64,000 bases of DNA from an uncultured Erysipelotrichaceae bacterium (lineage in GTDB: Bacteria; Bacillota_I; Bacilli_A; RF39; UBA660): assembly GCA_902795215.1 (NCBI GenBank), contig CADBKG010000008.1, positions 8,749 to 72,748 of the forward strand. The letters run 5' to 3'. Below the pieces are notes generated by a model. That model saw only the letters and a list, made by a program, of their open reading frames with translations. It was not told the origin of the DNA and made no database searches. The position numbers and the translations under genes were made by a program. Each line of letters starts with the position of its first letter. Positions within the stretch are counted from its first letter, which is position 1. Positions 741 through 28,332 of this stretch are shown one piece after another.

Positions 741-754
741 TGGAGGTGAAGAGT

Positions 755-9907: not shown

Positions 9908-9994
9908 TTTACATCACTATTATATAATATCATTTTTTTTATAAAAATACTACTTACTTTTTTGCTTTTTCCTTTTGTTTATTTTATAATAAAT

Positions 9995-12364
9995 ATGGTG
10001 TTAATTATGGATGTAAATATATTTAATAAAAAAGTAGTAATATTAAAAGATAAAGCTAAAAAAAGTTTTGTTAAAATGCTTAGTAATAGTGATAACTTAA
10101 TAAATGTTAAAATTATTACTTTGTCAGAGTTAAAAAAGAAAATATATTTTGATTATGAAAAAGATGCTATTGTTTATATTTCTAATAAATATAATGTAAT
10201 AACAGAAGTGGCTAAAGTTTATTTAGAAAGTTTATATAATAACCTAGATGCAGAAGGTGAAAAGATAGAGTTTTTGAAAACCTTAAAAAAAGATTTAGAT
10301 GATCAAAACTTATTAATATATGATAATATGTTTAAAAACTTTTTAAAGGGTAAAGATATAGTTTTATTTGATTTAAAATATGAAGATGCATTTTATGAAA
10401 ATATATTTAAAGAGTTAGAAAAAACTTCTAATATAATTAGGGTTGATATAGAAGGGGAAACATCCATAAAAGAAATATATCCTGCTTCTAATAAAGAAGA
10501 AGAAATTAGTTTTGTCGCTGAAGAAATTGCAAAAAAAATAATAAACGGAGTAGATATTAACAATATTAAACTTGCAAATGTAAGTGATGAATATAAATAT
10601 ACAATTAAAAAGATATTTAAGATGTTTAATATACCTGTAAACTTAAATGAAAAAGTATCTCTTAAAGGAACTAAATTACTTAAAACATTTAAAGAAAATT
10701 TTGATAAAGGTACAACTCTTGCTTTAGAAGAAACAAATAAGCTTGTTAAAAATAGTCAAGATGAAAAAATGTATAAAAAGATGATAGATGTTATAAATGA
10801 ATATGCAATTATCGATGAAGAGTATGATATAAAAGGGTATTTATTTGAAGATTTAGAAAATGCAAGTGTTAGTAAAAAGAAACTTAAAAATGCTGTAAAT
10901 ATTATAGATTTTGAAGATGATATTCTTAAAGATGATTATATTTATTTAATCAATTATAATCTAGGTTCAATTCCAAAAATAAAGATGGATGAAGATTATT
11001 TAAATGACAAGTTAAAAGAAACACTTGGACTTAGTCCATCTTATGAAATAAATAAAAGAGCAGTGTTAAATGTTCAAGAAAGAATTAGTAAAGTTAAAAA
11101 CTTGGTTGTCACATATTCCAAAAAAGATTTGACAAAAGAACTTTACATATCTCAAAGTTATAAAGGTGAGTTATTTACGGAAAAAACAATTGAAACTACG
11201 TACAAATATTCTGATTCATATAATAAAATCCTTTTGTTAAAAGCGCTTGATGAAAAGAAAAAGTATGGTACTGAAAGTGATGAATACAAGTTTTTAAGTA
11301 ATCATTACTCACTTGACTATTTAAGTTATGATAATAGTTTTAAAGGTGTAAATAAGTATTTGTTTAAAAACTATATAAAAGAAGGTCTTAATCTTTCTTA
11401 TACAAGTATTGATGAATACTATAAATGTAAATTTAGATATTACCTAGATAGAATACTAAAAATAGATAAAAATGAAGATACTTTTGCAACTATTATTGGT
11501 AATGTTTTTCATAAGATGTTAGAACTTTCTTATCAAGATGATTTTGATTTAGAAAAAGAATATAAAAAAGAAATAGATAATACGGATTATGAATTTAATA
11601 ATATGGAAAAGTTCTTTTTAGAAATATTATATGATGAAATAAATTTAATAATCGATACCATTAAAGAGCAAGACAAGCTTACTAGTTTAACTAGACGTGA
11701 ATTTGAAAAAAGAATTGCTATAAAAATAAAAGATGATCCAATTGTTTATTTTAAAGGATTTATAGATAAAGTAGTGTATGATGAGATAGATGGAAAAAAA
11801 GTATGTGTTATAGTTGATTATAAAACTGGTAATCCAGCATTAAATATTAATAATACTCCGTATGGAATTGGTATGCAGCTTCCTGTTTATATATATCTTT
11901 TGAAAGAAGATCATCCTGATAGCGAGATTGGTGGATTTTATTTACAAAAGATATTAAATGCAGAAGTTGAAATAGAGAAAAAACGTGAAAGTCTTAAATT
12001 ACAAGGTTACTCAAATAGTGATATAAAGATTTTAAGCTTAGTCGATAGCAGTTATAATTCTAGTAAATTAATTAAAGGAATGAAAACAACTGATAAAGGG
12101 TTTTATGCATACTCTAAAGTTCTTTCAAATGAAGAAATAGATAAACTATCGGATATAGTTAAAGAAAAAGTAATAGAGGCTGCAGAGGATATTATAAATG
12201 CAAACTTTGAAATAAATCCTAAATCTATAGATGGAACTTTAGTTGGATGTGAATACTGCAAGTTTAAAGATATATGTTTTAGAAAAAATGAAGATATAGT
12301 TAATCTTGAGAAAAAGGATTACAAAGAATTTTTAGGAGGTGACAAGAGTGAAGTGGACGCCTGA
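9995..12364 (+). CDS. addB: ATP-dependent helicase/nuclease subunit B (AddB/RexB), short form
   Basis: It lies immediately upstream of, and overlaps, addA. The C-terminus carries the AddB Fe-S cysteine pattern: YYKCKFRYY, then GCEYCKFKDIC (CxxCx5C). A RecB-type nuclease motif is present (DYKTG). The start is uncertain (ATG 9995 or 10007; the track start 9962 is TTG). I saw no Walker A motif. Confidence 0.8.
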   Translation: MVLIMDVNIFNKKVVILKDKAKKSFVKMLSNSDNLINVKIITLSELKKKIYFDYEKDAIVYISNKYNVITEVAKVYLESLYNNLDAEGEKIEFLKTLKKDLDDQNLLIYDNMFKNFLKGKDIVLFDLKYEDAFYENIFKELEKTSNIIRVDIEGETSIKEIYPASNKEEEISFVAEEIAKKIINGVDINNIKLANVSDEYKYTIKKIFKMFNIPVNLNEKVSLKGTKLLKTFKENFDKGTTLALEETNKLVKNSQDEKMYKKMIDVINEYAIIDEEYDIKGYLFEDLENASVSKKKLKNAVNIIDFEDDILKDDYIYLINYNLGSIPKIKMDEDYLNDKLKETLGLSPSYEINKRAVLNVQERISKVKNLVVTYSKKDLTKELYISQSYKGELFTEKTIETTYKYSDSYNKILLLKALDEKKKYGTESDEYKFLSNHYSLDYLSYDNSFKGVNKYLFKNYIKEGLNLSYTSIDEYYKCKFRYYLDRILKIDKNEDTFATIIGNVFHKMLELSYQDDFDLEKEYKKEIDNTDYEFNNMEKFFLEILYDEINLIIDTIKEQDKLTSLTRREFEKRIAIKIKDDPIVYFKGFIDKVVYDEIDGKKVCVIVDYKTGNPALNINNTPYGIGMQLPVYIYLLKEDHPDSEIGGFYLQKILNAEVEIEKKRESLKLQGYSNSDIKILSLVDSSYNSSKLIKGMKTTDKGFYAYSKVLSNEEIDKLSDIVKEKVIEAAEDIINANFEINPKSIDGTLVGCEYCKFKDICFRKNEDIVNLEKKDYKEFLGGDKSEVDA

Positions 12365-15300
12365 ACAACAAGATGCCATATTTAAAAGTGGAACAAATAT
12401 AATAGTTAGTGCAGGGGCAGGATCTGGTAAAACTGCTGTGCTTTCTGAAAGAGTGCTTGAAAAGATTAAAAGTGGAATTCATATAAATGAACTTTTAATT
12501 TTAACCTTTACTCGCGCTGCCGCGGATGAAATGAAATATAGAATCAGAAAAAAACTAGCAAGTGATGAGACTTATAAAGAAGAACTTGATAAAATAGATT
12601 CATCTTATATAACTACATTTGATTCCTTCGCATTATCGGTGTTAAAAAAGTATCATTATATGCTTAACTTGCCTAAAAATATAAAAGTAAGTGATGAGTC
12701 ACTTGTTAGACTTAAAAAAGAAGAAATGTTTAATGAAATATTTGAAGAATTATATAAAGAAAAGGATATAGACTTTTTAAATTTTATTAAAAGATATTCT
12801 GTTAAAAATGATTCAAATATAAGAAAAACTATTATTTCTATTAGTAATAAAACAGATGGTTTTATTGAAAAAGAAGAGTATTTTAGATATATAAAAGAGG
12901 CATTTTATAGCGAAGATAATATTAATTCTCTTGTAATTAAATACGAAAATTTAGTTAAAGAAAAACAAGAAGAGTTAAAAGATGCAATCGATAATTTAAA
13001 TTACTATTTTGATGGAGATTATGTAAATAAAATTAATGATATACTTATTAATTTTTATACGTCTGAGTACAATACGTTATCTAAATTATCAAAAGTTAGA
13101 CTTCCAAATGCTCCAAAAGGGGCAAGCGAAGAAGAAAAAAGCGAAAAAGCTAAAGTAAAAACAGCTTTAGATGATCTTTTATCATACTGCAGTTTTGAAA
13201 GTCTAGATGCTATAAAAAAAGATATATTATCTACAAAAGAAGATGCATTTGTAATAATTAAAATACTCGATATATTCTATAGTAGATTTAAAGCTTACAA
13301 ATTAGAAAACAAAATATTTACATTTAATGATATAGCATATTATGCAATCGAAATATTAAAATCTAATGAATCAGCAAGATTAGAACTTAAAAATTCTTTT
13401 AAAGAAATAATGATTGATGAATATCAAGATACTAACGATGTTCAAGAAACATTTATGTCGCTTATATCTAATGATAATATTTACATGGTTGGTGATATTA
13501 AACAGTCTATTTATCGCTTTAGAGGGTCTAACCCTAGTATATTTAAAGATAAGTATGAAAATTATTCTAAATTAGATGGTGGAATAAAAATAGATTTGAT
13601 TAAAAACTTCCGTTCAAGAAGTGAAGTGCTAGATAATATAAATAGTGTATTTAAACTTATAATGGATTCTAAACTTGGTGGGGCAGATTATCAAAAGAAT
13701 TCATTAATGGTATATGGAAATAAATCATATGAAGAAAAAATGGATGATTTTAATTATAACTTAAGAGTTCTTGAGTATGATAAAGAAGATAAAACATTTG
13801 AAAACTTTGAAAAAGAAATATTTATAATCGCAAAAGATATAAAAGATAAAGTAGATAACCATATTAAAGTTTTGGATAAAGAAACAGGGAATTTAAGAGA
13901 TATAAACTATGGTGATTTTGTTATTATTTTAGATAGAAGCAAATATTTTGATGATTATAAGAAAATATTTGAATATTTAAAAATACCTATGACTATATTA
14001 AAAGATGGTAACATAGGTAAAAGTGATGATATTTATTTAATTAAAAATATGATAGACTTGATACTTAGAATTAATGCTGAAGATTTTAATGAAGATTTTA
14101 AACATGATATTTTAAGTATAGGAAGAAGTTATTTATATGAATATAGTGATGATATTTTATTTGATGCAATTATAAATAAAAATTATAAAGAATTACCATT
14201 ATATAAAGATTTTGAAGAGATAGAAGATATAAATTCTAAAAGCCCAAAAGATCTATTTGAAGAAATACTTGATATAACTAATTTATATGAAAAAATATAT
14301 AAAACAGGTGATTACTCTAATGTTGATATCAGACTTGAAAATATAGGTAATATTGCATCTAGTTTAAATGATATTGGTATGGGACTAGAAGAATTTAGAG
14401 ACTATTTAGAAGAGATTTTATCTAGTGATATGGAAATAAAATATACAGAGTTTAGTGAAGATGTAAAAAGCGTTAAAATTATGACAATTCATAAATCTAA
14501 AGGTCTTGAATTTCCAATATGCTACTTTGCAGATTTAGATCATGGATTTAATAAAAGTGATTTAAATGAAAAATTTATTGTAACAAATGAATTTGGGTTA
14601 GTAGTTCCAAGTGAAAATGAAACAAGCGTATTAAAAACTTTATATAAAGAGTCATATTTAAATGATGAAATAAGTGAAAAAATAAGATTATTTTATGTAG
14701 GTTTAACGAGAGCGAAAGAACAAATGATTATAGTTTTACCTTATAAAGATACTCATAAAGAATCTAAAGATAAAGATGGAGTTATAAAACTTAGTGTAAG
14801 GAAAAAATATAGTAAACTATCTGACTTTGTATATAGTATAAAAGATTATTTAAATGGTTTTTTTGAAAAAATAGATTTAGAAAGAATACCTTTAACTAAA
14901 AATTATCTGTTTATAAAAAAGGAAACTACGAGTGTTAAAAACGAAATAACACCTTTAAAGGTATTTGACATAAATATAGATAATACTGAGGTAGAAGAGG
15001 GTAAATTCTCTAAAGAAACAACTAAATTAATAGATAAAAAAGCAAAAGAGAACATGAATTTTGGAACAAAAGTTCATGAAGCATTAGAACTTGTTGATTT
15101 TAAAAAGAGAAATACAGATATTATTGAAGATAAGTTCATTAGAGAAAAAGTAGAAAACTTCTTATCAAACTTGAAGCTTGATAATATAGATAATGCAAAT
15201 ATTTATCATGAATTTGAATTTATTTATGAAGATAAAACGAGAGAAATGACGGGTATAATCGATTTAATGATAGAATATGAAGATCATATAGATATAATTG

Positions 15301-15440
15301 ATTATAAACTTAAAAATGTAGATGATGAGAACTATATTAATCAGCTTAATGGATATAGAGATTATATTAAAAATAAAAAAGATAAAAGAGTTGATATATA
15401 TTTATATTCAATACTTAATAATGAGTTTAAAAACCTATAA
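12348..15440 (+). CDS. addA: ATP-dependent helicase/nuclease subunit A (AddA), UvrD/Rep-type
   Basis: AGGAGG at 12334-12339 favours GTG 12348 (MKWTPEQQDAIF). Motifs include Walker A GAGSGKT, DEYQDTN, IHKSKGLEF, and the C-terminal RecB-family nuclease motif GIIDLM...DIIDYK. Confidence 0.9.
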   Translation: MKWTPEQQDAIFKSGTNIIVSAGAGSGKTAVLSERVLEKIKSGIHINELLILTFTRAAADEMKYRIRKKLASDETYKEELDKIDSSYITTFDSFALSVLKKYHYMLNLPKNIKVSDESLVRLKKEEMFNEIFEELYKEKDIDFLNFIKRYSVKNDSNIRKTIISISNKTDGFIEKEEYFRYIKEAFYSEDNINSLVIKYENLVKEKQEELKDAIDNLNYYFDGDYVNKINDILINFYTSEYNTLSKLSKVRLPNAPKGASEEEKSEKAKVKTALDDLLSYCSFESLDAIKKDILSTKEDAFVIIKILDIFYSRFKAYKLENKIFTFNDIAYYAIEILKSNESARLELKNSFKEIMIDEYQDTNDVQETFMSLISNDNIYMVGDIKQSIYRFRGSNPSIFKDKYENYSKLDGGIKIDLIKNFRSRSEVLDNINSVFKLIMDSKLGGADYQKNSLMVYGNKSYEEKMDDFNYNLRVLEYDKEDKTFENFEKEIFIIAKDIKDKVDNHIKVLDKETGNLRDINYGDFVIILDRSKYFDDYKKIFEYLKIPMTILKDGNIGKSDDIYLIKNMIDLILRINAEDFNEDFKHDILSIGRSYLYEYSDDILFDAIINKNYKELPLYKDFEEIEDINSKSPKDLFEEILDITNLYEKIYKTGDYSNVDIRLENIGNIASSLNDIGMGLEEFRDYLEEILSSDMEIKYTEFSEDVKSVKIMTIHKSKGLEFPICYFADLDHGFNKSDLNEKFIVTNEFGLVVPSENETSVLKTLYKESYLNDEISEKIRLFYVGLTRAKEQMIIVLPYKDTHKESKDKDGVIKLSVRKKYSKLSDFVYSIKDYLNGFFEKIDLERIPLTKNYLFIKKETTSVKNEITPLKVFDINIDNTEVEEGKFSKETTKLIDKKAKENMNFGTKVHEALELVDFKKRNTDIIEDKFIREKVENFLSNLKLDNIDNANIYHEFEFIYEDKTREMTGIIDLMIEYEDHIDIIDYKLKNVDDENYINQLNGYRDYIKNKKDKRVDIYLYSILNNEFKNL

Positions 15441-15447
15441 TAAAGAC

Positions 15448-15475
15448 TTAACGAAATTGTTAAGTTTTTTGTTTA
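15448..15475 (+). terminator. intrinsic terminator after addA
   Basis: ACTTAAC-gaaatt-GTTAAGT is followed by tttttt. Confidence 0.6.
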
Positions 15476-15522
15476 CAAATCAACTACTTTGTGGTAGTAT
15501 AATTAACACTTTCGGAGGGGTT

Positions 15523-17016
15523 ATGGAAAGAGAAGAAATGTTAAACACTATTATAAATAGCACATATTATAAAGAGAATCCTAATTTGAGAATATATATT
15601 GATGATGTAAAAAGTTACAAAGAAGAATCTAATGAAAAGATTAAGGATTTAGCTATTAAGGCTCAAAGAGGGGATAAAACGGAATTAGAAAAAATTTTTA
15701 GTCATTATCAAATGGCAGTTCTTCAATATGCTTTTGAAAACGTAAACGAAGATGTAGATATTATGGATTTAATTCAAGCTGGGAATGAAGGAATATATAA
15801 AGCAGTAGAATTTTATAAGTACAATTTAAAAAGTTGTTTTAGTACTATTGTTATTAATTATATAAAACGTGAAATAAAGAAAGAAACTTATAATCAACAA
15901 TTTATTCAAAAACATGGATTTGAAATTCCTGATGGTTATCAAGCTGCTTCAGAAGCTTATAATAAAGCTAAAAAAATACTTGGATATGAACCCAGTAAAG
16001 AAGAAGTATTATCTTTAACAAATGCTAACAAATTGAGTACTAATAAGTATTATTCTTTACCAATTATCGATATAGAATTAGATAAAGGTTTTTCTAAGGA
16101 ACAATACGAAGAACTAAAAGAATTATCATGTTTACTACAAGAATTTAAAGAACCCGATAGTGATATTGACAAAAAGATGATTATAAATGCCCTTTTAGAT
16201 CGCTTAAGAAAAAGAAGAAGACAAATTGTTGAAATGTACTTTGGATTAAATGGAGAAGAACCAAAAAAAATACAAGAAATAGCTGATTATTATGGCGTAA
16301 GTAAACAAAATATATCAGCAGCAATAAATGAATCACTTAAAAAAATGAAAAAAATAATGATAGAAACAAATGGTAATATAAATTTAATAAAAGAAAATCC
16401 AAAGAAAGAAAAACATAAAAATAAATATATTCCGCAGGATGAAGGGAAAAGTTTTTATCAAATATTTGAACAATACGATGTAGAAACGAATGATATAATC
16501 AAGGTTTTATCTACTTTAGAAAAAAAATATATGAAGATTTTAGAAAAAAAATTTGGAAAAGACTTAAATGGAGAAGCATCAAACAGATTAACAAAAGAAG
16601 AAGATAATACGTTTTATAATGTTATTCTTACGATTATACTATTTAGAGCTTGTACTATTAAAGAACAGCGATTGGAACAAGAAAAACAGGAATACTTAAA
16701 GTATATGAATATAATAAATGATGAAAAATTAGAATTAGCATATTTTTTATCAAGTGAAGACTTTAAAAATCAAATCAAATATTTAGATGTTGCAAAAGTG
16801 TTTATTACAAAACTAAAATTTGGAGCAATTAATGGGGAAGAATATAGTGAAGAAAATATTGCTTACTTTTTAAAATTTAGTAAATCATATATTTATGAAT
16901 GCATTAAAGAAATAGTCACATTATGCAATAATTTAAACAATAATAAATTTAGAAATTATCTAGCATACTATGAAAATGAAAAAGAAATAGCAAAAGAAAA
17001 GGGAATAAAATTATGA
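15523..17016 (+). CDS. divergent sigma-70 family protein with ~220-aa C-terminal extension
   Basis: GGAGGGG at 15514-15520 supports ATG 15523 (MEREEML). Region 2 is DLIQAGNEGIYKAVEFYKY. A region-3-like segment is KAKKILGYEPSKEEVLSL. The region 4 HTH is RRRQIVEMYFGLNGEEPKKIQEIADYYGVSKQNISAAINESLKKMKK. An extension follows containing a second region-4-like segment (KLKFGAINGEEYSEENIAYFLKFSKSYIYECIKE). Confidence 0.75.
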   Translation: MEREEMLNTIINSTYYKENPNLRIYIDDVKSYKEESNEKIKDLAIKAQRGDKTELEKIFSHYQMAVLQYAFENVNEDVDIMDLIQAGNEGIYKAVEFYKYNLKSCFSTIVINYIKREIKKETYNQQFIQKHGFEIPDGYQAASEAYNKAKKILGYEPSKEEVLSLTNANKLSTNKYYSLPIIDIELDKGFSKEQYEELKELSCLLQEFKEPDSDIDKKMIINALLDRLRKRRRQIVEMYFGLNGEEPKKIQEIADYYGVSKQNISAAINESLKKMKKIMIETNGNINLIKENPKKEKHKNKYIPQDEGKSFYQIFEQYDVETNDIIKVLSTLEKKYMKILEKKFGKDLNGEASNRLTKEEDNTFYNVILTIILFRACTIKEQRLEQEKQEYLKYMNIINDEKLELAYFLSSEDFKNQIKYLDVAKVFITKLKFGAINGEEYSEENIAYFLKFSKSYIYECIKEIVTLCNNLNNNKFRNYLAYYENEKEIAKEKGIKL

Positions 17017-18380
17017 TAGAAAAAGTAGTAAAAGTATATGCTGATATGGGATATAATCCTAAAGAAGAAACAACGAAATACTGGTATAAAGTAGTTAATA
17101 TACTAAAAATATATGAATCAGCAGGTTGTGAAATAAATTATGCTTTAATAGCACATATTATTAGTATAGTAAAACATAAAGAAAAGTACCAAAGTCAAAT
17201 ATCTATGTTTTTAAAAGAGGCATTAGATGGAAATTCAATTGCTCAAAAAATAGTAATAGAATATTATGAAGATAAAGTAATAAAAGTTGCAAGTAATTAT
17301 ATTAATAAAGGATATGATTTTGATGAGCTTGTAAATGAAGGAATACTTAAAATATATGATTCTTTAACGAAAAAACCATCAAGTTTATTTTTCAACAATA
17401 TTATTCAAAGATTACATATATTCTATATGCGTATTGTAAAAGATAAAGAAACAATTAGTTATGAAAGGACTTATCAAAATTTAGATTCTCATGAAAAAAA
17501 GAAATATATAGATAATTCTATAATGGAATATAATATAACTGAAGAAGATATTTTAAGTCGAATTAGTGCAGAAAATATCAAAGATTATTTAAAAGATTTA
17601 CCTGATGAAAAACATCAAAGAATTATTGAGAAGCGCTTTGGATTATTAACTGGAGAAGAAATGACTCTTGAGGCAATAGGCAAAGAAGAAAACTTGACAA
17701 AAGAAAGAGTAAGAATAATTGTTGATAATTGCTTAGTTATCTTAAAAAACAAAATTATTTATAATGAACGTATGGCTGAAGTAAATTCTCAGATAAAAGA
17801 TAGTAAAGTAAAAACTTTAGAAAATTATGTTTTTGAACGTAGATTTAACTCATTTTTTGATAAATTGGGATATGATTTATTTACAGTATCTTTTATGTTA
17901 AGACAAATAGATAATGAAACTAAAGAAAGATTAATCATTGAAATAGGGAACTATGATAGTTCTAGTAATAAAGAAAAGCAAATAATCTCAAAATATCCAG
18001 AAGTACTTGAAAAACTTGATGATATAAAGAAACAAATGCAATTTAATAGTAAGAAAGCAAGTTTAAAAAAAGCAGAAAAGGAAGAAAGAATAAAAGAACT
18101 TAAAGACTTTATACTTTTTTATGATTTTGATGAAGTTAATGATATAACTTTTGATATGAAATTATTGGTTACTAAATTATATTTAGGTATACTAAAAGAA
18201 GACGAAAAATATAGTATTGCAAAGATTTCAAGATTTTTAAAAATAAGTAAAGAAGAAGTCCAACAATATATTTATGATGTTATACAATATTGTAATACTA
18301 TTAATGATGGCATATTTGATGTTTGTCTTTCATATTATGAAGATAAATTTAAAAAAACAAAAAGCAAAAGTTTTAATTGA
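17013..18380 (+). CDS. second divergent sigma-70-like protein, paralogous C-terminal extension
   Basis: ATGA overlap with the upstream gene. Region 2-like LVNEGILKIYDSL. Region 4 is HQRIIEKRFGLLTGEEMTLEAIGKEENLTKERVRIIVDNCL. The C-terminal module (KLYLGILKEDEKYSIAKISRFLKISKEEVQQYIYDVIQYCN...LSYYEDK) parallels that of 15523-17016. Confidence 0.65.
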   Translation: MIEKVVKVYADMGYNPKEETTKYWYKVVNILKIYESAGCEINYALIAHIISIVKHKEKYQSQISMFLKEALDGNSIAQKIVIEYYEDKVIKVASNYINKGYDFDELVNEGILKIYDSLTKKPSSLFFNNIIQRLHIFYMRIVKDKETISYERTYQNLDSHEKKKYIDNSIMEYNITEEDILSRISAENIKDYLKDLPDEKHQRIIEKRFGLLTGEEMTLEAIGKEENLTKERVRIIVDNCLVILKNKIIYNERMAEVNSQIKDSKVKTLENYVFERRFNSFFDKLGYDLFTVSFMLRQIDNETKERLIIEIGNYDSSSNKEKQIISKYPEVLEKLDDIKKQMQFNSKKASLKKAEKEERIKELKDFILFYDFDEVNDITFDMKLLVTKLYLGILKEDEKYSIAKISRFLKISKEEVQQYIYDVIQYCNTINDGIFDVCLSYYEDKFKKTKSKSFN

Positions 18381-18405: not shown

Positions 18406-18630
18406 TATATGCATAAAGCAGTTGAGGAAGACGTCAAAATTCTAGAGTTTAAAGAGAGCTTGCGGTTGGTGAAAGCAAGTAAACAAGAAATTTTGTAAAT
18501 CACTTCTGATGCGATTTGGGGATAAGCCAAATACGTTTTACTCGCGTTAAGAGATTAAGCGCATGATAACTCATGAACTAAGGTGGTACCACGGGATTAT
18601 TCTCGCCCTTAGACTCATGAGTTTTTTTAT
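18406..18630 (+). promoter_or_regulatory. T-box riboswitch leader (Ile)
   Basis: The conserved T-box AAGGTGGTACCACGGG lies at 18580-18595. The AGAGA and GGTTGGTGAAAGC stem I motifs are present. A candidate AUC specifier sits in gtaaATCActt. The terminator helix AACTCATGAaCTAAGG...CCTTAGacTCATGAGTT plus a U-run (18568-18628) overlaps the T-box. Confidence 0.9.
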
Positions 18631-18642
18631 TTAGAAGGGAAG

Positions 18643-21600
18643 ATGGATATGAAAAAGTTTGAATCACTAGATAAAAGTGAAACAAGTAAGGTTGAAAAAA
18701 AGATATTAAAAAAATGGAAAAAAGAAAATATCTTAAACAAGACTATTCAAAATAGGGAAGGTAATGAAACTTGGGTTTTTTATGATGGACCAATATACGC
18801 TAATGCAAAACCAGGAATTCATCATGTATTTGCTAAGACTATAAAAGATGCTTTTTGTAAGTATAAAACTATGCAAGGATATAAAGTTTTAAGAAAAATA
18901 GGACTTGATACACATGGTTTACCAATTGAAGTAAACGTTGAGAAGAAACTTGGTTTCAAAACAAAAGCTGATATTGAAAAATTTGGTGTTGAGAACTTCT
19001 GTATCGAGTGTAACAAAAATACAGCGCTTAATATTGATGAAGTAAATAAAGTTACAGATATGATGGGGCAATTTATTGATTGCGATAAACCATATGTTAC
19101 ATGTTCTAATGAATTTATAGAAACTGAATGGTGGTTACTTAAAGAAATCGCTAAAAAAGATCTATTATATTATGGTAATAAAGTACTATGGTATTGTCCT
19201 AGATGTGGTACAGAATTATCTGCAAGTGAGGTATCACAAGGATATCAAGAAGATCCTGTTAATTCTATAATTCTACCATTTAAGAAAAGTGATGAAGACG
19301 TATATTTCTTAGTATGGACTACAACTCCTTGGACATTAATTGCTAATCTTGCAATATGTGTTAATCCTAATTATACATACTTAAAAGTTGAGTCTAAGGG
19401 ATATAAATTTATTATTTGTGAAACTTTACTTGAAAAAGTACTAGGTGAAGACGTAAAAGTTCTTGAGACATATAAAGGTACAGATTTAATCGGTATGAAA
19501 TATGATCAACTTATGCCATTTATCGATGTTCCTGGTAAGGCATTTGAAGTTATTGCAGATGAATACGTAACAGATTCTGATGGTACTGGTCTTGTTCATA
19601 TTGCGCCTGCTTATGGTGAAGATGATAATAGAGTTTGTAAAAAATTTGGTATTGATCCAATTAATCCAGTTGGACCAGATGGATGTTACACTGAAGGTCC
19701 ATGGGAAGGAAGACTTGTTACAGATCCAGAACTTGAAGTTGAAATTATTAAGTGGCTTAAAGAAAATGATAAACTATTTAAGAAAATTAGATTAACTCAC
19801 GATTATCCTCACTGCTGGAGATGTAAGAGTGCTTTAATTAGTTATCCTAAACCAGCATGGTATATCGAAACAACAAAATATAAAAAAGAGATTATAGAAG
19901 CTAATAAAAAAGTTAAATGGTACCCATCTTACATAGGTGAAAAAAGATTTGGAAATTGGCTTGAAAACATGATCGATTGGGGAATCTCTAGAAGTAGATA
20001 TTGGGGATGTCCAATGCCAATTTGGACTTGTGAATGTGGTCATCGTGAAGTTATTGGTTCACTTGATGAATTACAAGAAAAGATTATGGAAGATATTGAT
20101 GTTAGAAAAATAGAATTGCATAGACCATATGTTGATGATTTACATATTAAATGTGAAAAATGTGGAAAAACTATGGACAGAGTAAAAGATGTAATGGATG
20201 TATGGTTTGATTCAGGTGCAATGCCATATGGTCAATATCATTACCCATTTGAAAATAAACAATTATTTGAATCACAATTCCCTGCAGATTTTATTGCAGA
20301 AGGTGTTGATCAAACAAGAGGATGGTTTAATTCATTAATTTGTATATCTACTATTGTAAGTGGAACATCATCTTATAAAAGTGTTGTTGTTAATGATATG
20401 ATGTTAGATGCAGAAGGTAAAAAGATGAGCAAATCATCTGGTAATATTGTTGACCCAGTTGCAATAATGGAAAAATATGGCGCAGATAATATTAGATGGT
20501 ATATGCTTTATGCATCTCCAGTTTGGACACCATTAAAATTTTCTGAAGAAGGTGTTAAAGAAGTACATTCTAAGTTCTTTAATCCATTTAAAAACACATA
20601 TTCATTCTTTGAAACTTATGCTAATATAGATAAGATTGATATTGATAAATGCAAGATTCCTTATGAAAACCGCGAAGAAATAGATAAATGGTTATTATCT
20701 AAATATAATAAGCTTGTAAAAGATGTAACATATGAATATGAACACTTTGACTTAAATAATGTTACAAGATTAATAACTCAATTTGTTTCTGAAGATTTAT
20801 CAAACTGGTATATTAGAAGAAATAGAAATAGATTTTGGGCAAGTGAAATGACTGATTCTAAAAAATCTGTTTATATAACAACTTATGAAGTACTTGAAGG
20901 TTTATGTAAATTATGTGCGCCTATCGCTTCATATACAACAGAAGAAATATTTACAAAACTAACAAGAAAAGAATCTGTTCATTTAGAAGATTTCCCTAAA
21001 GTTGATGAAAAACTAATCAACAAAGAAATCGAAACAAGAATGGATTTAGTAAGAGATTTAATTTCAACTGGTAGATATGTTAGAGAAGAAGCTAAGATTA
21101 AAGTTAGACAACCTCTTTCAGAATGTATTATAAATGGAGCTTATAAGAAAATTCTTGGTGACTTAACTGAATTAATTAAAGAAGAATTAAATGTTAAAAA
21201 AGTTACATATGTAGAAGATTTATCTAAATACATGCATTTTAATATTAAACCTAACTTTAAAGTAGTAGGTCCTACTCTTGGAAGTAATATAAAAGCATTC
21301 CAAGGAGCACTTATGGATTTAAATGAAGAAGATAAGAAGATGCTTCTAAAAGAAGAAACTATTACAATTGACTTCAATGGCGAAAGATTAGATGTTACAC
21401 CTGATATGGTTGATGTTAGAATAGAAGCTAAAGAAGGATTCAATGTTGGAATGGAAAACAATAAGTTCGTTATTCTTAATACAGACATCGATAGAGATTT
21501 ACTACTAGAAGGACTAGCTAGAGAATTTGTTTCTAAAGTTCAAAATATGCGTAAAACTAGTGGCCTTGAAATCGAAAATAGAATCGAATTATATTATGAT

Positions 21601-21750
21601 GGTGACAAAGAAATTTTAGAATCACTATCTAAATATTCTGATTATGTAAAAGAAGAAACACTTGCAACTGTATATGAAAATAAAGATTCAGGTGAAGAAA
21701 TCGACGTAAATGGTCATAAAGTTAAAGTTCAAATTAAAAAGGTAGATTAG
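18643..21750 (+). CDS. ileS: isoleucine--tRNA ligase, type 2 (long, Thermus/eukaryote-like form)
   Basis: HIGH-region PGIHHV, KMSKS, ~1035 aa. The N-terminal region aligns with my recollection of Thermus-type IleRS (DTHGLPIE, CPRCGT.LS..EV..GY). It is preceded by an Ile T-box. Confidence 0.95.
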   Translation: MDMKKFESLDKSETSKVEKKILKKWKKENILNKTIQNREGNETWVFYDGPIYANAKPGIHHVFAKTIKDAFCKYKTMQGYKVLRKIGLDTHGLPIEVNVEKKLGFKTKADIEKFGVENFCIECNKNTALNIDEVNKVTDMMGQFIDCDKPYVTCSNEFIETEWWLLKEIAKKDLLYYGNKVLWYCPRCGTELSASEVSQGYQEDPVNSIILPFKKSDEDVYFLVWTTTPWTLIANLAICVNPNYTYLKVESKGYKFIICETLLEKVLGEDVKVLETYKGTDLIGMKYDQLMPFIDVPGKAFEVIADEYVTDSDGTGLVHIAPAYGEDDNRVCKKFGIDPINPVGPDGCYTEGPWEGRLVTDPELEVEIIKWLKENDKLFKKIRLTHDYPHCWRCKSALISYPKPAWYIETTKYKKEIIEANKKVKWYPSYIGEKRFGNWLENMIDWGISRSRYWGCPMPIWTCECGHREVIGSLDELQEKIMEDIDVRKIELHRPYVDDLHIKCEKCGKTMDRVKDVMDVWFDSGAMPYGQYHYPFENKQLFESQFPADFIAEGVDQTRGWFNSLICISTIVSGTSSYKSVVVNDMMLDAEGKKMSKSSGNIVDPVAIMEKYGADNIRWYMLYASPVWTPLKFSEEGVKEVHSKFFNPFKNTYSFFETYANIDKIDIDKCKIPYENREEIDKWLLSKYNKLVKDVTYEYEHFDLNNVTRLITQFVSEDLSNWYIRRNRNRFWASEMTDSKKSVYITTYEVLEGLCKLCAPIASYTTEEIFTKLTRKESVHLEDFPKVDEKLINKEIETRMDLVRDLISTGRYVREEAKIKVRQPLSECIINGAYKKILGDLTELIKEELNVKKVTYVEDLSKYMHFNIKPNFKVVGPTLGSNIKAFQGALMDLNEEDKKMLLKEETITIDFNGERLDVTPDMVDVRIEAKEGFNVGMENNKFVILNTDIDRDLLLEGLAREFVSKVQNMRKTSGLEIENRIELYYDGDKEILESLSKYSDYVKEETLATVYENKDSGEEIDVNGHKVKVQIKKVD

Positions 21751-21761: not shown

Positions 21762-21788
21762 TTGATATACTTAAAATAGGTGAGAAGT

Positions 21789-22628
21789 ATGAAAAATATA
21801 AAAGAAAAAATAGTATATTTATCATTAATAACATTGCTATTATCATTTGCATTTATCTTTATAAAAATAGATATACTTTCATATAAAAGTTATAACTTTT
21901 TAGGAATATTACTTACTTTTATAGGTTATATTATGGTCATATATGGAATTAAAAAAGGACAAAAAGAAATATATAATATGGGACTTGTTTTATACTTTGC
22001 ATCATTTATACTTGTGTTTTTTGAAATTGCAAACAAGCATAGTAAATTTACTCAGTTTAAAGAATATCAAGATACTAGAATAATTTTCTGCACAGGATTT
22101 TATATATTAATAACTTCTCTTATAATATTTATTCCAAGTATATTTATTAAAAACAAAAATGAAGATAAAAAAGAAGTAAAAGCTAAAACAAAAAAACAAA
22201 AGAAAATCAAAAAAGAAACTATAAAAGAAGAAAAGAACTATATCGCTGGATATTATGTATATGGTATTAAAAATAAACAAGGATTATTTGATAGTCTATG
22301 TGCCATAAAAAAAGAAGAAGATAATATTATTCTATATATTAAAGATATTGAAAAGAAGATTCCTATATCTAAGATTACTGATATTGACATTAAGAATGAT
22401 ATTATAGAAAAATCTAGATTAAAAGAAATATCTGAAGAAGATAATAAAACTATATTTAAAAAGTTACATTTAAAAACTCCTTTTTATAATTTAATAGAAT
22501 TTAAAAACAAAAAATCAAATTACACTAGTATATACGAATATACATTAACTTATAAAACAGGTAAGACAGAAAATAAAATAATGATTAAAACTATAGAAGA
22601 TCCAAAAAGCTTTATAAGTATAGATTAA
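21789..22628 (+). CDS. hypothetical multi-pass membrane protein with Lys-rich linker and C-terminal soluble domain
   Basis: AGGTGAG precedes ATG 21789. There are about four hydrophobic segments in the N-terminal half, then KKEVKAKTKKQKKIKKE, then a soluble domain. Confidence 0.6.
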   Translation: MKNIKEKIVYLSLITLLLSFAFIFIKIDILSYKSYNFLGILLTFIGYIMVIYGIKKGQKEIYNMGLVLYFASFILVFFEIANKHSKFTQFKEYQDTRIIFCTGFYILITSLIIFIPSIFIKNKNEDKKEVKAKTKKQKKIKKETIKEEKNYIAGYYVYGIKNKQGLFDSLCAIKKEEDNIILYIKDIEKKIPISKITDIDIKNDIIEKSRLKEISEEDNKTIFKKLHLKTPFYNLIEFKNKKSNYTSIYEYTLTYKTGKTENKIMIKTIEDPKSFISID

Positions 22629-22651
22629 CAAAGTTTTGTAAATCATATGAC

Positions 22652-22680
22652 TTGACATCATCTTTATACTGGAGTATATT
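22652..22680 (+). promoter_or_regulatory. sigma-A type promoter of the type III TA operon
   Basis: TTGACA (22652-22657), a 17-nt spacer, then TATATT (22675-22680), about 30 nt upstream of the first RNA repeat. Confidence 0.7.
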
Positions 22681-22707
22681 AAAAACACATAACTTATTTA
22701 TGTAATT

Positions 22708-22817
22708 AAAAAAGCTGGTGATTCCGACCATAACAGGAACCTAAAAAAGCGGCGATTCCGGCCATGACAGGAAACTAAAAAAGCGGCGATTCCGGCCACG
22801 ACAGGAAACCAAAAAAG
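22708..22817 (+). ncRNA. toxI: ToxI-like type III antitoxin RNA: 3.2 tandem 34-35 nt repeats
   Basis: Repeat 1 is AAAAAAGCTGGTGATTCCGACCATAACAGGAACCT (22708-22742). Repeat 2 is AAAAAAGCGGCGATTCCGGCCATGACAGGAAACT (22743-22776). Repeat 3 is AAAAAAGCGGCGATTCCGGCCACGACAGGAAACC (22777-22810), followed by a partial AAAAAAG. The repeats are head-to-tail with no spacers, GC-rich in an AT-rich genome and non-coding. They lie between a promoter and a terminator directly upstream of a ToxN-family gene. Confidence 0.85.
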
Positions 22818-22819
22818 AA

Positions 22820-22847
22820 ATTAGAGAGCTCACTCTAATTTTTATTT
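22820..22847 (+). terminator. intrinsic terminator between antitoxin RNA and toxin gene
   Basis: ATTAGAG-agctca-CTCTAAT is followed by ttttattt. In known type III TA loci a terminator at this position sets the RNA:toxin ratio. Confidence 0.75.
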
Positions 22848-22862
22848 CTCTATGGGGGGACA

Positions 22863-23369
22863 ATGGAAGAGTTAAAATTAGTAAAAATAGATATTGATTA
22901 TTGTAATTATTTACGAAAGTTTGATAAAAAAATAGTCTATAATTCTGAAAACAAGAAAAATAGACCGTTTTTGGGTATTTTATTTAATATAGACTATATA
23001 ATGTATTTTGCTCCGCTATCAAGTCCAAAAGAAAAACATTTTAAAATGCACGATAATATTGATTTTCTTAAAATCGATGGTGGTAAGCTTGGGGTAGTGA
23101 ATTTAAACTTAATGATTCCAGTGGAATATGATAATATTGAGATAATAAATTTGTCTAACAAATATGCTAATAAAAAATATATAAATCTTTTAAACAAACA
23201 AAGTTATTGGATTAATAGACATAAAAACAGGCTGTTTTCAAAAGCATATAAATTATATAAAGATTATTATAATGATAAACTTAACTTTCTAATTAAGGAA
23301 AGATGCTGTAACTATCCACTATTAGAAGAAAAGTGTTTTGAATATAATAATGGATTTTTAAAGTGTTGA
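22863..23369 (+). CDS. toxN: ToxN/AbiQ-family type III toxin endoribonuclease
   Basis: GGGGGGA RBS, 168 aa. Blocks match ToxN as I recall it: YCNYLRKFDKKI (ToxN YIEYLKEFDDKV), PFLGILFNIDYIMYFAPLSSPK (AFIGIVLEIQGHKYLAPLTSPK), GVVNLNLMIPV (GLINLKFMIPI), CCNYPLLEEKC (CNFSLLEEKY). Confidence 0.9.
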   Translation: MEELKLVKIDIDYCNYLRKFDKKIVYNSENKKNRPFLGILFNIDYIMYFAPLSSPKEKHFKMHDNIDFLKIDGGKLGVVNLNLMIPVEYDNIEIINLSNKYANKKYINLLNKQSYWINRHKNRLFSKAYKLYKDYYNDKLNFLIKERCCNYPLLEEKCFEYNNGFLKC

Positions 23370-23394
23370 AATAATAATTAATTTGTGTTAAGAT
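23366..23394 (+). promoter_or_regulatory. promoter for the thrS leader
   Basis: TTGAAA (23366-23371), a 17-nt spacer, then TGtTAAGAT, an extended -10 (23386-23394). Confidence 0.6.
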
Positions 23395-23600
23395 ACATTT
23401 GTAAATCGAAAGAAAGACACGGCTTTAATAGGAGTAATCAAGAGAGTGAGTGGTTGGTGCAAACTCATTTACAAATAATAAAGTTACTACTTTCTAGAGG
23501 GTCTAATAAACCACGTATGACTAGCGTTATTTAGTCTAAGAGTTAAATTAAGGATGGTACCGTGCATATGCACTCCTTTGGTGCTATCTTTTTTTATTTA
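23395..23600 (+). promoter_or_regulatory. T-box riboswitch leader (Thr)
   Basis: The T-box AAGGATGGTACCGTGC lies at 23550-23565. AGAGAG and GGTTGGTGCAAAC stem I motifs are present. Candidate ACU specifiers sit in agttACTACTttc. The terminator GATGGTACC...GGTGCTATC plus T8 overlaps the T-box. Confidence 0.85.
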
Positions 23601-23615
23601 GAAAGAAGGAAAAAT

Positions 23616-25379
23616 ATGGTAAATTTTAAAGAAAATGAAGAGTTAAACAAATTAAATCACAGTTGTGCTCATCTACTTGCGCAAGCTGTAAAACATCTAT
23701 ACCCAGAGGCTAAATTTTGGGTAGGTCCTGTTGTAGATGAGGGATTTTATTATGATATCGATTTAGGGGATAAGGTTATAACAGAAGAAGATATTCCTAA
23801 AATCGAAAAAGAAATGAAAAAATGTGCAAAAGATAATAAACTAATTAAAAGACATGAAATATCTAAAGAAGAAGCGCTTGAAATGTTTAAAGATGATCCT
23901 TATAAAATGGATTTAATATCTAGAATGGATGAAGATACAACTGTTATATCTTGTTATTCTCAAGGGGACTTTACAGACCTATGTCGTGGTCCACATGTTG
24001 AGTCTACAAAACTTCTTAAGAATTTTAAATTAACTAAATTCTCTGGTGCATATTGGAAAGGTGATAAAAATAATAAAATGCTTCAAAGAATATATGGAGT
24101 ATGTTTTCCAACACCTGAAGAGTTAGAAGAACATTTAAAAGAACTTGAAGAGGCTAAAGAAAGAGACCATAGAAAACTAGGTAAAGAAATGGGTATTTAT
24201 ATGATATCTGATTTAATAGGAAAAGGAATGCCACTTTATTTACCTAATGGTTATACTTTATGGAGAACTCTTCAAAACTATATTACTGATAAAGAAATAA
24301 AATATGGTTATCAGCATGTTCATACACCTGATGTAGGTACAAAGCAATTATATGAAACATCTGGACATTGGGATCATTACAAAGAAAATATGTTCCCTGC
24401 AATGGAAGTTGACGGTGAAACATATGTTTTAAGACCAATGAATTGTCCACATCATATGGTAATTTTTGGTAGTGATATTCATTCTTATCGTGATTTACCA
24501 CTTAGAATTGCTGAAGTTGCCAATGACTTTAGATACGAAGCCGCAGGTGCATGTAAAGGTCTTGAAAGAGTTAGAGCAATGACCCAAAATGATTCACATA
24601 TATTCTGCAGGCCTGATCAAGTTGAAGAAGAGTTTAAAAGTGTAGTAAACTTAATAATGGAAGTATATAGTGATTTTAAGGTAGATGTTAGTAAATTCGA
24701 ATTTAGATTATCACTAAGAGATAAAAACTCTAAAACAAATAAATATTATGATGATGATGAAATGTGGGATAAAGCTGAAAATGCATTAAGAAATGTTTTA
24801 AAAGAGATGAAGCTTGATTTCTTTGAAGCTAAAGATGAAGCTGCATTTTATGGCCCAAAACTAGATGTCCTTGTTAAACCTGCAGTTGGTCCTGCAGTAA
24901 CAATTCCAACAGTACAGCTTGATTTCTTACTTCCTAAGAATTTTGAATTATCATATATAGATGAAAATGGAGAAAAGAAAACACCAGTTGTTATCCATAG
25001 AGCAATACTTGGATCAATAGATAGATTTATGGCATTCCTTTTAGAAGAAACAAAAGGTAACTTACCATTATGGCTTGCACCTAAACAAATAAATATTATT
25101 CCTGTTAATAACGAATATCATTTAGATTATGCTAAAGATGTTTATAATAAATTACTTGAATTAGGATATAGAGTCGAGCTTGATGATAGAAATGAAAAGT
25201 TATCTTATAAGATGAGAGAATCTCAAATCAAAAAAATACCTTTAACTTTAATACTTGGCGATAAAGAAAAAGATGCGAAAGAAATAAGTTATAGAAAATA
25301 TTCTAGTAAAGAAACCACTACATTAAAATATGATGAATTTATTGATTATTTAAATAAAAGAATAGAAAGTAAAGATTAA
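23616..25379 (+). CDS. thrS: threonine--tRNA ligase (lacks N-terminal TGS domain)
   Basis: The true start is ATG 23616 (MVNFKENEEL) after gaaagaagga; the track's upstream extension lies inside the T-box terminator. Motifs include HSCAHLLAQA, FTDLCRGPH, RPMNCPHH and class II motifs, plus a C-terminal anticodon-binding domain. The protein begins about 13 aa before the HSxAH motif, so no TGS domain is present. Confidence 0.95.
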   Translation: MVNFKENEELNKLNHSCAHLLAQAVKHLYPEAKFWVGPVVDEGFYYDIDLGDKVITEEDIPKIEKEMKKCAKDNKLIKRHEISKEEALEMFKDDPYKMDLISRMDEDTTVISCYSQGDFTDLCRGPHVESTKLLKNFKLTKFSGAYWKGDKNNKMLQRIYGVCFPTPEELEEHLKELEEAKERDHRKLGKEMGIYMISDLIGKGMPLYLPNGYTLWRTLQNYITDKEIKYGYQHVHTPDVGTKQLYETSGHWDHYKENMFPAMEVDGETYVLRPMNCPHHMVIFGSDIHSYRDLPLRIAEVANDFRYEAAGACKGLERVRAMTQNDSHIFCRPDQVEEEFKSVVNLIMEVYSDFKVDVSKFEFRLSLRDKNSKTNKYYDDDEMWDKAENALRNVLKEMKLDFFEAKDEAAFYGPKLDVLVKPAVGPAVTIPTVQLDFLLPKNFELSYIDENGEKKTPVVIHRAILGSIDRFMAFLLEETKGNLPLWLAPKQINIIPVNNEYHLDYAKDVYNKLLELGYRVELDDRNEKLSYKMRESQIKKIPLTLILGDKEKDAKEISYRKYSSKETTTLKYDEFIDYLNKRIESKD

Positions 25380-27274: not shown

Positions 27275-27351
27275 GGCGGTGTAGCTCAGTTGGCTAGAGC
27301 GACTGGTTCATACCCAGTAGGTCGGGAGTTCAATTCTCTCCGCCGCTACCA
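27275..27351 (+). tRNA. tRNA-Met (CAU), elongator type
   Basis: I folded a 77-nt cloverleaf by hand. Acceptor GGCGGTG/CGCCGCT; D arm GCTC-AGTTGGCTA-GAGC; anticodon stem ACTGG/CCAGT with loop TTCATAC; T arm GGGAG-TTCAATT-CTCTC; encoded CCA. It is near-identical in its stems to Bacillus elongator tRNA-Met. It lacks the initiator features (no 3 G:C pairs in the anticodon stem). Confidence 0.9.
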
Positions 27352-27528: not shown

Positions 27529-28332
27529 ATGGAAAACAAAACACAAAATTATATAGCATATTTTGATGAAACAGGTGATGATGGAAATAATACAAATTCT
27601 TCTGACACTTTTTTATTAACAAGTATGTATATGCCCATGAATAGTTGGCAAAAAAATTATGAAATAATGACGGATTTAAAAAAGAATTTAAAAGATAAAT
27701 ATGGTTTTTATATAAAAGAAGAAATGCATACTAAACATTTTTTATGTGATAAAGACCCATATAGAAAATATAACTGGACTAAAGAACAAAAGCAAAAAAT
27801 ATTAGTAGAATTTACTTTAGCTATTAGCAAACTAGATGCTAAACTTATAAATGTTATGATAGATAAAAGAAAAATTAAAAAACCTAATTATAAAGTATTA
27901 GAAAATGCACTAACATATAATATTCAAAGAATAGAAAATGATAGTAATGGTAAATGGAACTATATAATTATTACTGATAAGGGTAGAATATCTCCTATGA
28001 GAAAAACTGCAAGGTCTATAAGAGCATACAATCCTATTCATTCTAAGTTTTCAACGGAAGTAACTAATCAACCAATTAAAAATTTAATAGAAGATATTCT
28101 TGAAAAAGATTCTAAAGAATCACATTTTATACAAGTTTGTGATTTTGTTTCTTATTTTACTCATTTATATCAAAAATGTTGTGTTGAAAAACAACCCTTT
28201 CCAAATAGAGTAGCAAACTGTATTGATGATAATTTTATAAGTAGAGTGCTTCAAACTTTAAAAAGTAAAGATAAATTAAATTTAAATGCAAATAAAAAGG
28301 ATACCTTTGGAATAGTTAAGTATCCTAGATAA
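27529..28332 (+). CDS. DUF3800 domain protein
   Basis: AAGGAGG RBS. The N-terminal YIAYFDETGDDG (DE(S/T)G motif) and C-terminal HFIQVCDFVSYF (Q-x-x-D motif) are characteristic of DUF3800. Confidence 0.75.
   Translation: MENKTQNYIAYFDETGDDGNNTNSSDTFLLTSMYMPMNSWQKNYEIMTDLKKNLKDKYGFYIKEEMHTKHFLCDKDPYRKYNWTKEQKQKILVEFTLAISKLDAKLINVMIDKRKIKKPNYKVLENALTYNIQRIENDSNGKWNYIIITDKGRISPMRKTARSIRAYNPIHSKFSTEVTNQPIKNLIEDILEKDSKESHFIQVCDFVSYFTHLYQKCCVEKQPFPNRVANCIDDNFISRVLQTLKSKDKLNLNANKKDTFGIVKYPR

Follow-up and report, generated by a model that had tools for sequence, protein, structure and literature searches.

Type III toxin-antitoxin systems of the ToxIN family combine an endoribonuclease toxin, ToxN, with an antitoxin RNA, ToxI, encoded as a repeat array. 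A 2012 survey listed 67 toxIN loci, 57 of them chromosomal, with repeats of 31-62 nt (mean 38.1) in 1.9-5.6 copies (mean 2.8) and toxins of 168.0 aa on average, and predicted a conserved ToxI pseudoknot with two stems of 3-4 nt (PMC3401426). ToxN of Bacillus thuringiensis (ToxN_Bt) cleaves at A/AAAA and the related AbiQ at A/AAA, and about 2.5 repeats suffice for ToxI of Pectobacterium atrosepticum (ToxI_Pa) (PMC5086642). Here we describe a locus of this kind in a 64,000-nt stretch of contig CADBKG010000008.1 from an uncultured Erysipelotrichaceae bacterium (assembly GCA_902795215.1; hereafter the window, to which all coordinates refer): at 22652-23369 a promoter-like site, a repeat array, a terminator-like hairpin and a toxN gene follow one another. 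We are confident in reading the locus, from its sequence, as a bona fide ToxIN-family type III toxin-antitoxin operon on the chromosome of a low-G+C member of the Bacilli. The copy appears to be complete and working, and is a typical, unsurprising example: with 34-nt units, 3.2 copies, a 168-aa toxin, a chromosomal location and a Firmicutes host, it is mid-distribution on every measure of the survey, and its array falls inside the family range of unit length and copy number. A preliminary description had proposed the same system, and all sequence-level predictions that follow from this reading held (toxin family, fold, unit layout and covarying pseudoknot). Its framing of the locus as novel was overstated: a chromosomal location is the rule, and the unit, the copy number and the toxin length are family averages.

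The closest solved relative is ToxIN_Bt from plasmid pAW63, whose toxin shares 31% identity with that of the window in the structural alignment. Its antitoxin unit is also 34 nt long, in about three copies; the 34 nt x 2.9 copies and the A-rich cleavage sites that the preliminary description had quoted are correct (PMC5086642). Promoter, array, hairpin and toxN come in the same order in both systems. They differ in location, the window locus being chromosomal and ToxIN_Bt residing on a conjugative plasmid, and the window RNA has diverged beyond the reach of the Rfam ToxI model. ToxIN_Pa (plasmid pECA1039) and the Escherichia coli system ToxIN_Ec share the fold (TM-scores 0.78-0.82), the operon logic and an H-type pseudoknot antitoxin, but have 36-nt units in 5.5 copies that are cut at AA/AU or GAAAU, and their toxins are 25-27% identical to that of the window, in which position 33 is Arg. 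AbiQ/antiQ of Lactococcus lactis pSRQ900 has a 35 nt x 2.8 array; AbiQ shares with the window toxin a Ser at the position of ToxN Thr52, and is a much more distant relative of it than ToxN_Bt (E 9.5e-5 versus 8.6e-24). Membership of the CptIN or TenpIN families was considered and rejected: ToxN_toxin is the sole Pfam match of the toxin at E <= 1, and the 34-nt repeat lies below the 39-57 nt of those families.

The toxN gene (22863-23369, + strand, ATG start) encodes a predicted ToxN/AbiQ-family endoribonuclease of 168 aa, an assignment made from Pfam, PADLOC, PDB and fold comparisons. The open reading frame (ORF) matches the Pfam family ToxN_toxin (PF13958) with 154.2 bits (cutoff 25; E 4.4e-45) over profile positions 1-159 of 159, so that the profile search proposed as a check came out positive over the full length; the Pfam search returned no other family at E <= 1. 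The PADLOC AbiQ model matches at 1.5e-33, over the full model length. Sequence matches in the PDB are 4ATO (ToxN_Bt, 8.6e-24), 2XD0 (P. atrosepticum ToxN, 2.8e-14), 7D8O (E. coli ToxN, 3.3e-12) and 4GLK (AbiQ, 9.5e-5), and the motifs picked out earlier in this ORF (YLxxFDxK, APLSSPK, NLxxMIP and LLEEK) recur in these alignments. An AlphaFold2 model built on 39 homologues has a mean predicted local distance difference test score of 90.1. When it was compared with the PDB by Foldseek, the same four structures were the only ones at E <= 1e-8 (TM-scores 0.77-0.82); no structure from outside the ToxN/AbiQ group was found at E <= 0.001, the next being MazF toxins at E > 0.06.

Mutation of K33, T52, K55, N79 or Q117 abolished the toxicity of ToxN_Ec, and S53 was placed in its active site from the structure (PMC8860590). 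When aligned to 2XD0, the window toxin has R34, S53, S54 and K56 at the active-site residues K33, T52, S53 and K55 of ToxN_Pa, and N80 and Q113 at N79 and Q117. Four of the five residues that make up the ToxN_Pa active site (Tyr29, Lys33, Thr52, Ser53 and Lys55) therefore have equivalents. R34, S54, K56, N80 and Q113 are invariant in the 39 homologues, and S53 is present in at least 90% of them. The two substitutions are known in active family members: Arg at position 33 in place of Lys occurs in E. coli ToxN clusters 4 and 5 (PMC8860590), and Ser at position 52 in place of Thr is the AbiQ state (AbiQ Ser51; PMC5086642).

Tandem Repeats Finder delimits the repeat array as 22707-22817 and gives it a period of 34, 3.2 copies, 90% matches and a score of 171. 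Read directly on the + strand, it consists of repeat R1 (22708-22742, 35 nt, AAAAAAGCTGGTGATTCCGACCATAACAGGAACCT), repeat R2 (22743-22776, 34 nt, AAAAAAGCGGCGATTCCGGCCATGACAGGAAACT), repeat R3 (22777-22810, 34 nt, AAAAAAGCGGCGATTCCGGCCACGACAGGAAACC) and a partial fourth unit, AAAAAAG (22811-22817, 7 nt), which bears out the three head-to-tail copies and partial fourth of period 34-35 in the preliminary description. R1 is a variant unit, with an additional U after GC, a GGU/ACC stem 1 and the tail GGAACCU; set against R2 and R3 (GGC...GCC), its GGU...ACC amounts to a compensatory change in stem 1. R3 differs from R2 at two positions, both unpaired. An A6 tract lies at every unit boundary, compatible with the A/AAAA site of ToxN_Bt; the partial fourth unit supplies the tract that bounds R3 on its 3' side, and it overlaps the foot of the terminator stem. 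From the end of the array to the toxN ATG is 45 nt. A 30-nt pattern of the unit, allowing up to three mismatches, matched twice in the window, both times inside the array, against 0.00 expected from 100 shuffles. Seen from the minus strand, every unit has the form of a G+C-rich hairpin with a T6 run behind it, and a terminator scanner called one of these (22783-22799) terminator-like; antisense transcripts entering the array would meet three such sites. This look may be a by-product of combining stem 1 with an A-tract.

The toxI unit is predicted to form an H-type pseudoknot with single-stranded tails, the same design as in B. thuringiensis ToxI, and covariation among related units supports this. 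In R2, stem 1 would pair 22751-22753 with 22761-22763 and stem 2 would pair 22756-22760 with 22768 and 22770-22773, leaving A22769 bulged and the A6 tract at 22743-22748 as a single-stranded 5' tail. In unit positions, stem 1 is G9 G10 C11 with G19 C20 C21, stem 2 is U14 U15 C16 C17 with G28 G29 A30 A31, and a G18-C26 pair closes across the bulged A27. Units from related loci follow a common plan: an A-tract, G-C/U, GGY, a loop of 7-9 nt, RCC, a variable A-rich linker, a short G-rich segment and a final 2-5 nt. The pAW63 units of ToxI_Bt, AAAAAATTGGTGTAGCCTTACCGTAGTAGGCGCT, conform to it, with the A6 tract, GGY, a loop pairing with a downstream segment, RCC, the linker and the 3' strand of stem 2 in the same order. 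The helix of the Rfam ToxI model (gCCU/AGGc), formed by the stem-1 loop and a downstream segment, corresponds to stem 2 of the window. The comparison with ToxI pseudoknots called for in the preliminary description thus gave the same layout as in ToxI_Bt, backed by covariation, with the Rfam model itself finding no match. Two details set the window unit apart from that of B. thuringiensis: its stem-1 loop has 7 nt rather than 8 nt, and one more covarying pair, 18-26, spans a 1-nt bulge in its subfamily.

Evidence for stem 2 comes from a permutation test, which took for each unit the longest Watson-Crick match of the loop to the 3' part of the same unit and compared it with the matches obtained once 3' parts had been permuted among 56 units. 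Cognate matches averaged 3.93 nt and permuted ones 3.36 +/- 0.08 nt, with 0 of 2000 permutations reaching the observed value. The stem is made from at least nine kinds of sequence: UUCC/GGAA, UCCA/UGGA, UCCC/GGGA, GCC/GGC, CCUC/GAGG, GCUC/GAGC, ACUC/GAGU, GCCU/AGGC and CCCC/GGGG. Columns were counted in a MAFFT-only alignment (A3) of the 44 units with a 7-nt loop, to each of which the start of the next unit was appended as an anchor; the other 12 units, with loops of 8-9 nt and including ToxI_Bt, entered the permutation test only. A plain MAFFT alignment of the units (A2) was dropped because it misaligned the 3' halves, in which the linker varies in length. Of all cells at the eight proposed pairs, 91.2% are paired in A3; column shuffles give 80.7 +/- 1.1, and none of 500 attained the observed value. 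The covariation score is 0.358, against 0.164 when shuffled, and partners slid out of register are at most 53% paired. Two-sided changes are seen at four of the eight pairs: 9-21 (GC 37, AU 6), 11-19 (UA 17, UG 16, CG 9), 15-30 (UA 33, CG 7, GC 3) and 18-26 (GC 15, CG 9, AU 8, UG 3).

The array is preceded on the + strand by a predicted sigma-70-type promoter for the toxIN operon, TTGACA-17-TATATT at 22652-22680 (-35 hexamer 22652-22657, -10 hexamer 22675-22680), present as described before and agreeing with consensus at 11 of 12 positions. It is the best-scoring promoter-like site of the region, in which such sites as a class are not enriched (10 found, 8.4 expected from shuffles), and its sequence suggests that it functions as a promoter. 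The leader between the -10 hexamer and the array is 27 nt long and 92.6% identical to that of the orthologous locus L107. It contains a small 6-bp hairpin (22687-22703, + strand; -2.4 kcal/mol, z -1.7), a weak feature placed after the predicted transcription start and ahead of the array. Between toxI and toxN, ViennaRNA folding gives a terminator-like hairpin (22816-22849, + strand) with an 11-bp A/U-rich stem (22816-22826 with 22833-22843), the loop AGCUCA and the tail AUUUCU; the hairpin proper (22816-22843) has -9.8 kcal/mol and z -2.3. The intrinsic terminator claimed after the array thus has its counterpart in a predicted hairpin with a U-rich tail and a stem that is invariant among orthologues. 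By analogy with the family (PMC5086642), termination here would be partial. A Shine-Dalgarno-like G6 run (22854-22859, + strand) ends 3 nt before the toxN ATG and is kept in the orthologues.

The exact ToxN sequence occurs on five contigs in public data, and nine contigs have an orthologous arrangement as far as each extends. The longest of them carry ileS, a 278/282-aa ORF, toxIN, a T-box leader, thrS, a yceD-like gene and rpmF. Between toxN of the window and orthologues of 87% identity, the ratio of nonsynonymous to synonymous substitution rates (dN/dS) is 0.12-0.13 at a dS of about 0.5. Identity to L107 is 92.3% over the 234-nt non-coding part and 79.3% at third codon positions of toxN. Within the non-coding part, orthologues L002 and L105-L112 all keep both promoter hexamers, -35 and -10, while the spacer has substitutions; the terminator stem is unchanged, and the hairpin differs in its loop only; in the units, variation is seen at unpaired linker and tail positions. 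The variant R1 with its extra U is the first unit of all orthologous arrays, and is 97% identical to that of L107. Copy number is polymorphic, with 2.2 units in L002 (152-228) and 3.2 in the window, L105 and L107-L112. Taken as sequence, the pattern is that expected of a functional promoter, a structured RNA, a terminator and a toxin under purifying selection.

We also assembled 103 loci coding for toxin relatives: 80 came from metagenomes, 19 from viral contigs, 1 from genomes and 3 from exact look-up. Tandem Repeats Finder, run on the upstream sequence of each gene (up to 450 nt), gave an array with a period of 32-55 nt (median 36) before the toxN homologue at 82 of them; the commonest copy numbers, 3.2 (38 loci) and 2.2 (20 loci), together account for 58 of the 82. 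At nine of the 21 loci lacking an array, the contig ends within about 160 nt of the gene. The scan of genome contigs yielded one relative of the toxin, at 50% identity, in a metagenome-assembled genome of the Bacilli. An exhaustive HMMER search returned 1,490 cluster representatives (50% identity) at E <= 0.001, and 575 at E <= 1e-10. At three loci (L056 2731-2945, L057 2835-2945 and L072 2016-2145) the units are 54-56 nt long, with a 20-nt A/U-rich insert between the 3' strands of stems 1 and 2 and a 5' half like that of the 34-36-nt units. These may be the same class as the ToxI units of about 60 nt that the 2012 survey was unable to align (PMC3401426). Of the 19 viral-contig loci from IMG/VR (L085-L103), 13 have ToxI-like arrays directly upstream of the toxin gene (32-40 nt, 2.2-5.2 copies), so that complete toxIN modules are present on contigs classed as viral. 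IMG/VR was also searched for phage-borne ToxI mimics: an exact unit pattern found no match, and the three single matches of a second pattern were rejected as chance, lying in unrelated sequence of higher G+C content that has neither an array nor toxN.

How the module would work can be modelled on ToxIN_Pa, ToxIN_Bt, ToxIN_Ec and AbiQ (PMC5086642, PMC8860590, PMC3401426). The single promoter at 22652-22680 would transcribe the toxI array; most transcripts would end at the weak hairpin (22816-22849) and a minority would read through to give ToxN, keeping the RNA in excess over the toxin. ToxN, as a metal-independent endoribonuclease, would cut the precursor within each A6 tract, in a register that the sequence does not predict, and release units of 34-35 nt with single-stranded A-rich tails and, as described for the family (PMC3401426), 2',3'-cyclic phosphate ends. 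The last cleavage site would be the partial fourth unit, giving three complete units per transcript. Each unit would then fold into the H-type pseudoknot, in which stem 1 is GGY/RCC and the loop UUCCG pairs with the downstream C-A-GGAA, the interaction backed by covariation. Its tails would dock in the active-site grooves of two neighbouring ToxN molecules, head to tail, and close an inactive complex, probably a 3:3 heterohexamer as in 4ATO, 2XD0 and 7D8O; to relate the three units per transcript to a 3:3 complex is speculation. On a shut-off of transcription, for example by a phage, the antitoxin RNA would be lost faster than the toxin, and free ToxN would cleave A-rich RNAs and arrest or kill the cell, that is, cause abortive infection.

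Several points weigh against reading the locus as a working ToxIN operon with a role in phage defence. The locus is credited with transcription, processing, toxicity, neutralisation and phage defence by analogy with characterised systems. In the toxin, Tyr29 of ToxN_Pa falls in a three-residue alignment gap and has no mapped equivalent. Covariation was counted on Tandem Repeats Finder consensus units of related loci, for the 44 with a 7-nt loop, and pair 14-31 is present in just 26 of these 44. Minimum free energy folding of the unit (z 0.08) and of the whole array (z 0.67) is no better than shuffles, and so it is covariation that carries the pseudoknot; we dropped such folding as evidence either way, the method being nested-only and blind to a pseudoknot. 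The A/U-rich hairpin between toxI and toxN is not called by a simple terminator scanner, because its stem has only two G-C pairs. The Rfam ToxI model (RF02519) has no match in 22000-24000 of the window even at E <= 10; the same scan returned the thrS T-box leader and a chance small-RNA match only. As a control, RF02519 scored the three pAW63 units at 59.2, 47.1 and 39.8 bits (gathering threshold 50), and it found nothing at E <= 1 in the relatives L001 and L003. The antitoxin RNA of the window, probably ToxI-like in function, is outside the current Rfam model. Finally, the module sits among housekeeping genes and not in a defence island, and ToxIN_Bt is documented for plasmid retention, during sporulation, rather than for phage defence (PMC4615649).

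The last two points lead to a reading of the same functional ToxIN as something other than phage defence, a selfish addiction or locus-stabilising element or a stress-responsive growth regulator, kept at its site since its loss would be lethal. We regard this as possible, though we do not favour it. That the closest solved relative has been shown to promote plasmid retention speaks for it, as does the presence of the module at the same site in all nine orthologous contigs that were found; ToxIN_Pa, AbiQ and other family members, in contrast, give abortive infection (PMC3401426, PMC5086642), and PADLOC places the protein under AbiQ. The two roles are compatible, and the sequence does not favour one over the other. 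A decaying remnant, still ToxIN-shaped but with a dead toxin or antitoxin, is very unlikely. The weak terminator, the closeness of the G6 run to the ATG and the repeat lost in L002 might hint at decay, but the ORF is intact, all alignable active-site residues are kept and dN/dS is low; the promoter hexamers, pseudoknot positions and terminator stem are conserved while the linker and third codon positions drift; and the 2.2 copies of L002 are the second commonest state in the family, and about 2.5 repeats are enough for ToxI_Pa. We give even less credence to the idea that the repeats are a cis-regulatory leader, an attenuator or protein-binding array controlling toxN or thrS. The array does form part of the toxN 5' untranslated region and precedes thrS, and its units resemble intrinsic terminators on the minus strand. 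However, at 82 loci whose neighbours are unrelated (in L003, for instance, the position is after dnaJ) a toxN homologue is accompanied by an array of the same type, and the array therefore travels with toxN and not with thrS; relatives with thrS but without toxN have no array; and the covarying pseudoknot and A-tract boundaries are shared with ToxI_Bt, an RNA with a solved ToxN complex.

The genes around the ToxIN operon were compared with those of relatives. As previously noted, ileS (18643-21750, downstream of its T-box leader at 18413-18613, Rfam 117.5 bits) and thrS flank the module; they are not its immediate neighbours, for a 282-aa ORF intervenes on the ileS side and the thrS T-box leader on the other. 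The 282-aa ORF (21780-22628) has no family match, a hydrophobic N-terminal half and a Lys/Glu-rich middle; it is kept as a 278-aa ORF in the orthologous contigs and is split into ORFs of 122 and 132 aa in L107 (1424-2263). The proposal that the module was inserted between ileS and thrS is neither demonstrated nor refuted: in a search for an empty site, ThrS relatives at 90%, 84%, 84% and 81% identity had different upstream genes and neither toxN nor an array. The homology between L113 and the window sets in immediately past the toxN stop, and the gene upstream in L113 is unrelated to the 282-aa ORF. In the sequences compared, the module is confined to a narrow lineage, with no clean empty site found among the relatives. 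No integrase or other mobility gene adjoins it, and composition does not break at the module, the G+C content staying at 20-33% throughout. Those ThrS relatives that bear a name are labelled as metagenome-assembled genomes of "Bacilli bacterium" or "Bacillota bacterium".

Other neighbours are housekeeping in character: an AddAB-like pair, two sigma-70-like ORFs, a yceD-like gene, rpmF and a tRNA-Met. The first pair consists of overlapping genes for an 800-aa PD-(D/E)XK nuclease (9962-12364) and a 1033-aa UvrD-like helicase (12339-15440), which look AddB/AddA-type; the helicase also matches the PADLOC GajB and DRT-helicase models, as any UvrD-like protein would. The sigma-70-like ORFs (15322-17016, 564 aa; 17013-18380, 455 aa) overlap as well, match sigma-70 regions 2/4 and, weakly, MzaA (1.1e-8 and 6.6e-6), the sigma factor of the MZA anti-phage system, and have long C-terminal parts with no family match. 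Neither Pfam nor PADLOC gives a match at E <= 0.001 for a 2556-aa ORF at 740-8410. Downstream, the tRNA-Met (27275-27351) is directly followed by a DUF3800 protein (27529-28332, 267 aa, E 1.4e-12), and the two may mark the edge of an integrated element.

Downstream of toxN, the thrS T-box leader (23400-23580, + strand; Rfam 64.4 bits, below the gathering threshold of 93; T-box terminator 23570-23584) is preceded by a promoter-like site of its own, TTGAAA-17-TAAGAT with an extended -10 TG (23366-23394), whose -35 hexamer overlaps the toxN stop TGA (23367-23369). The first terminator-like site on the + strand after toxN is the T-box terminator itself. Transcription of toxN should therefore continue into the thrS T-box leader, an arrangement kept in the orthologous contigs that reach into thrS. 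We consider it improbable, but worth stating, that read-through transcripts of toxN carry the T-box leader as their 3' untranslated region and so couple a toxin-antitoxin system of type III to amino-acid starvation sensing. If this were true, the 3' end of the toxin mRNA, and perhaps some thrS expression, would depend on tRNA-Thr charging.

The preliminary description had held that such a system was unlikely to be annotated in this lineage, which applies to the RNA, left unannotated, and not to the toxin: public annotation routinely names ToxN homologues "type III toxin-antitoxin system ToxN/AbiQ family toxin". Our NCBIfam search of the toxN ORF matched no ToxN model, its sole match being a sub-threshold one to STM3941, and the public name must therefore come from another model set. 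The RNA, missed by the current Rfam model, is the sole unannotated component of the module. By itself the locus adds one chromosomal ToxIN to a family of at least 1,490 clusters at 50% identity. At least 82 related loci, most of them of metagenomic origin (gut and other) and some on viral contigs, have ToxI-like arrays, which the Rfam ToxI model, having failed on the three scanned (the window, L001 and L003), appears not to reach. A broader covariance model with the pseudoknot annotated would allow the antitoxin to be annotated alongside the toxin, and the natural variants described here (R1 versus R2 and R3, orthologues with 2.2 versus 3.2 copies, and the nine stem-2 sequences) could guide work on the specificity of these systems.

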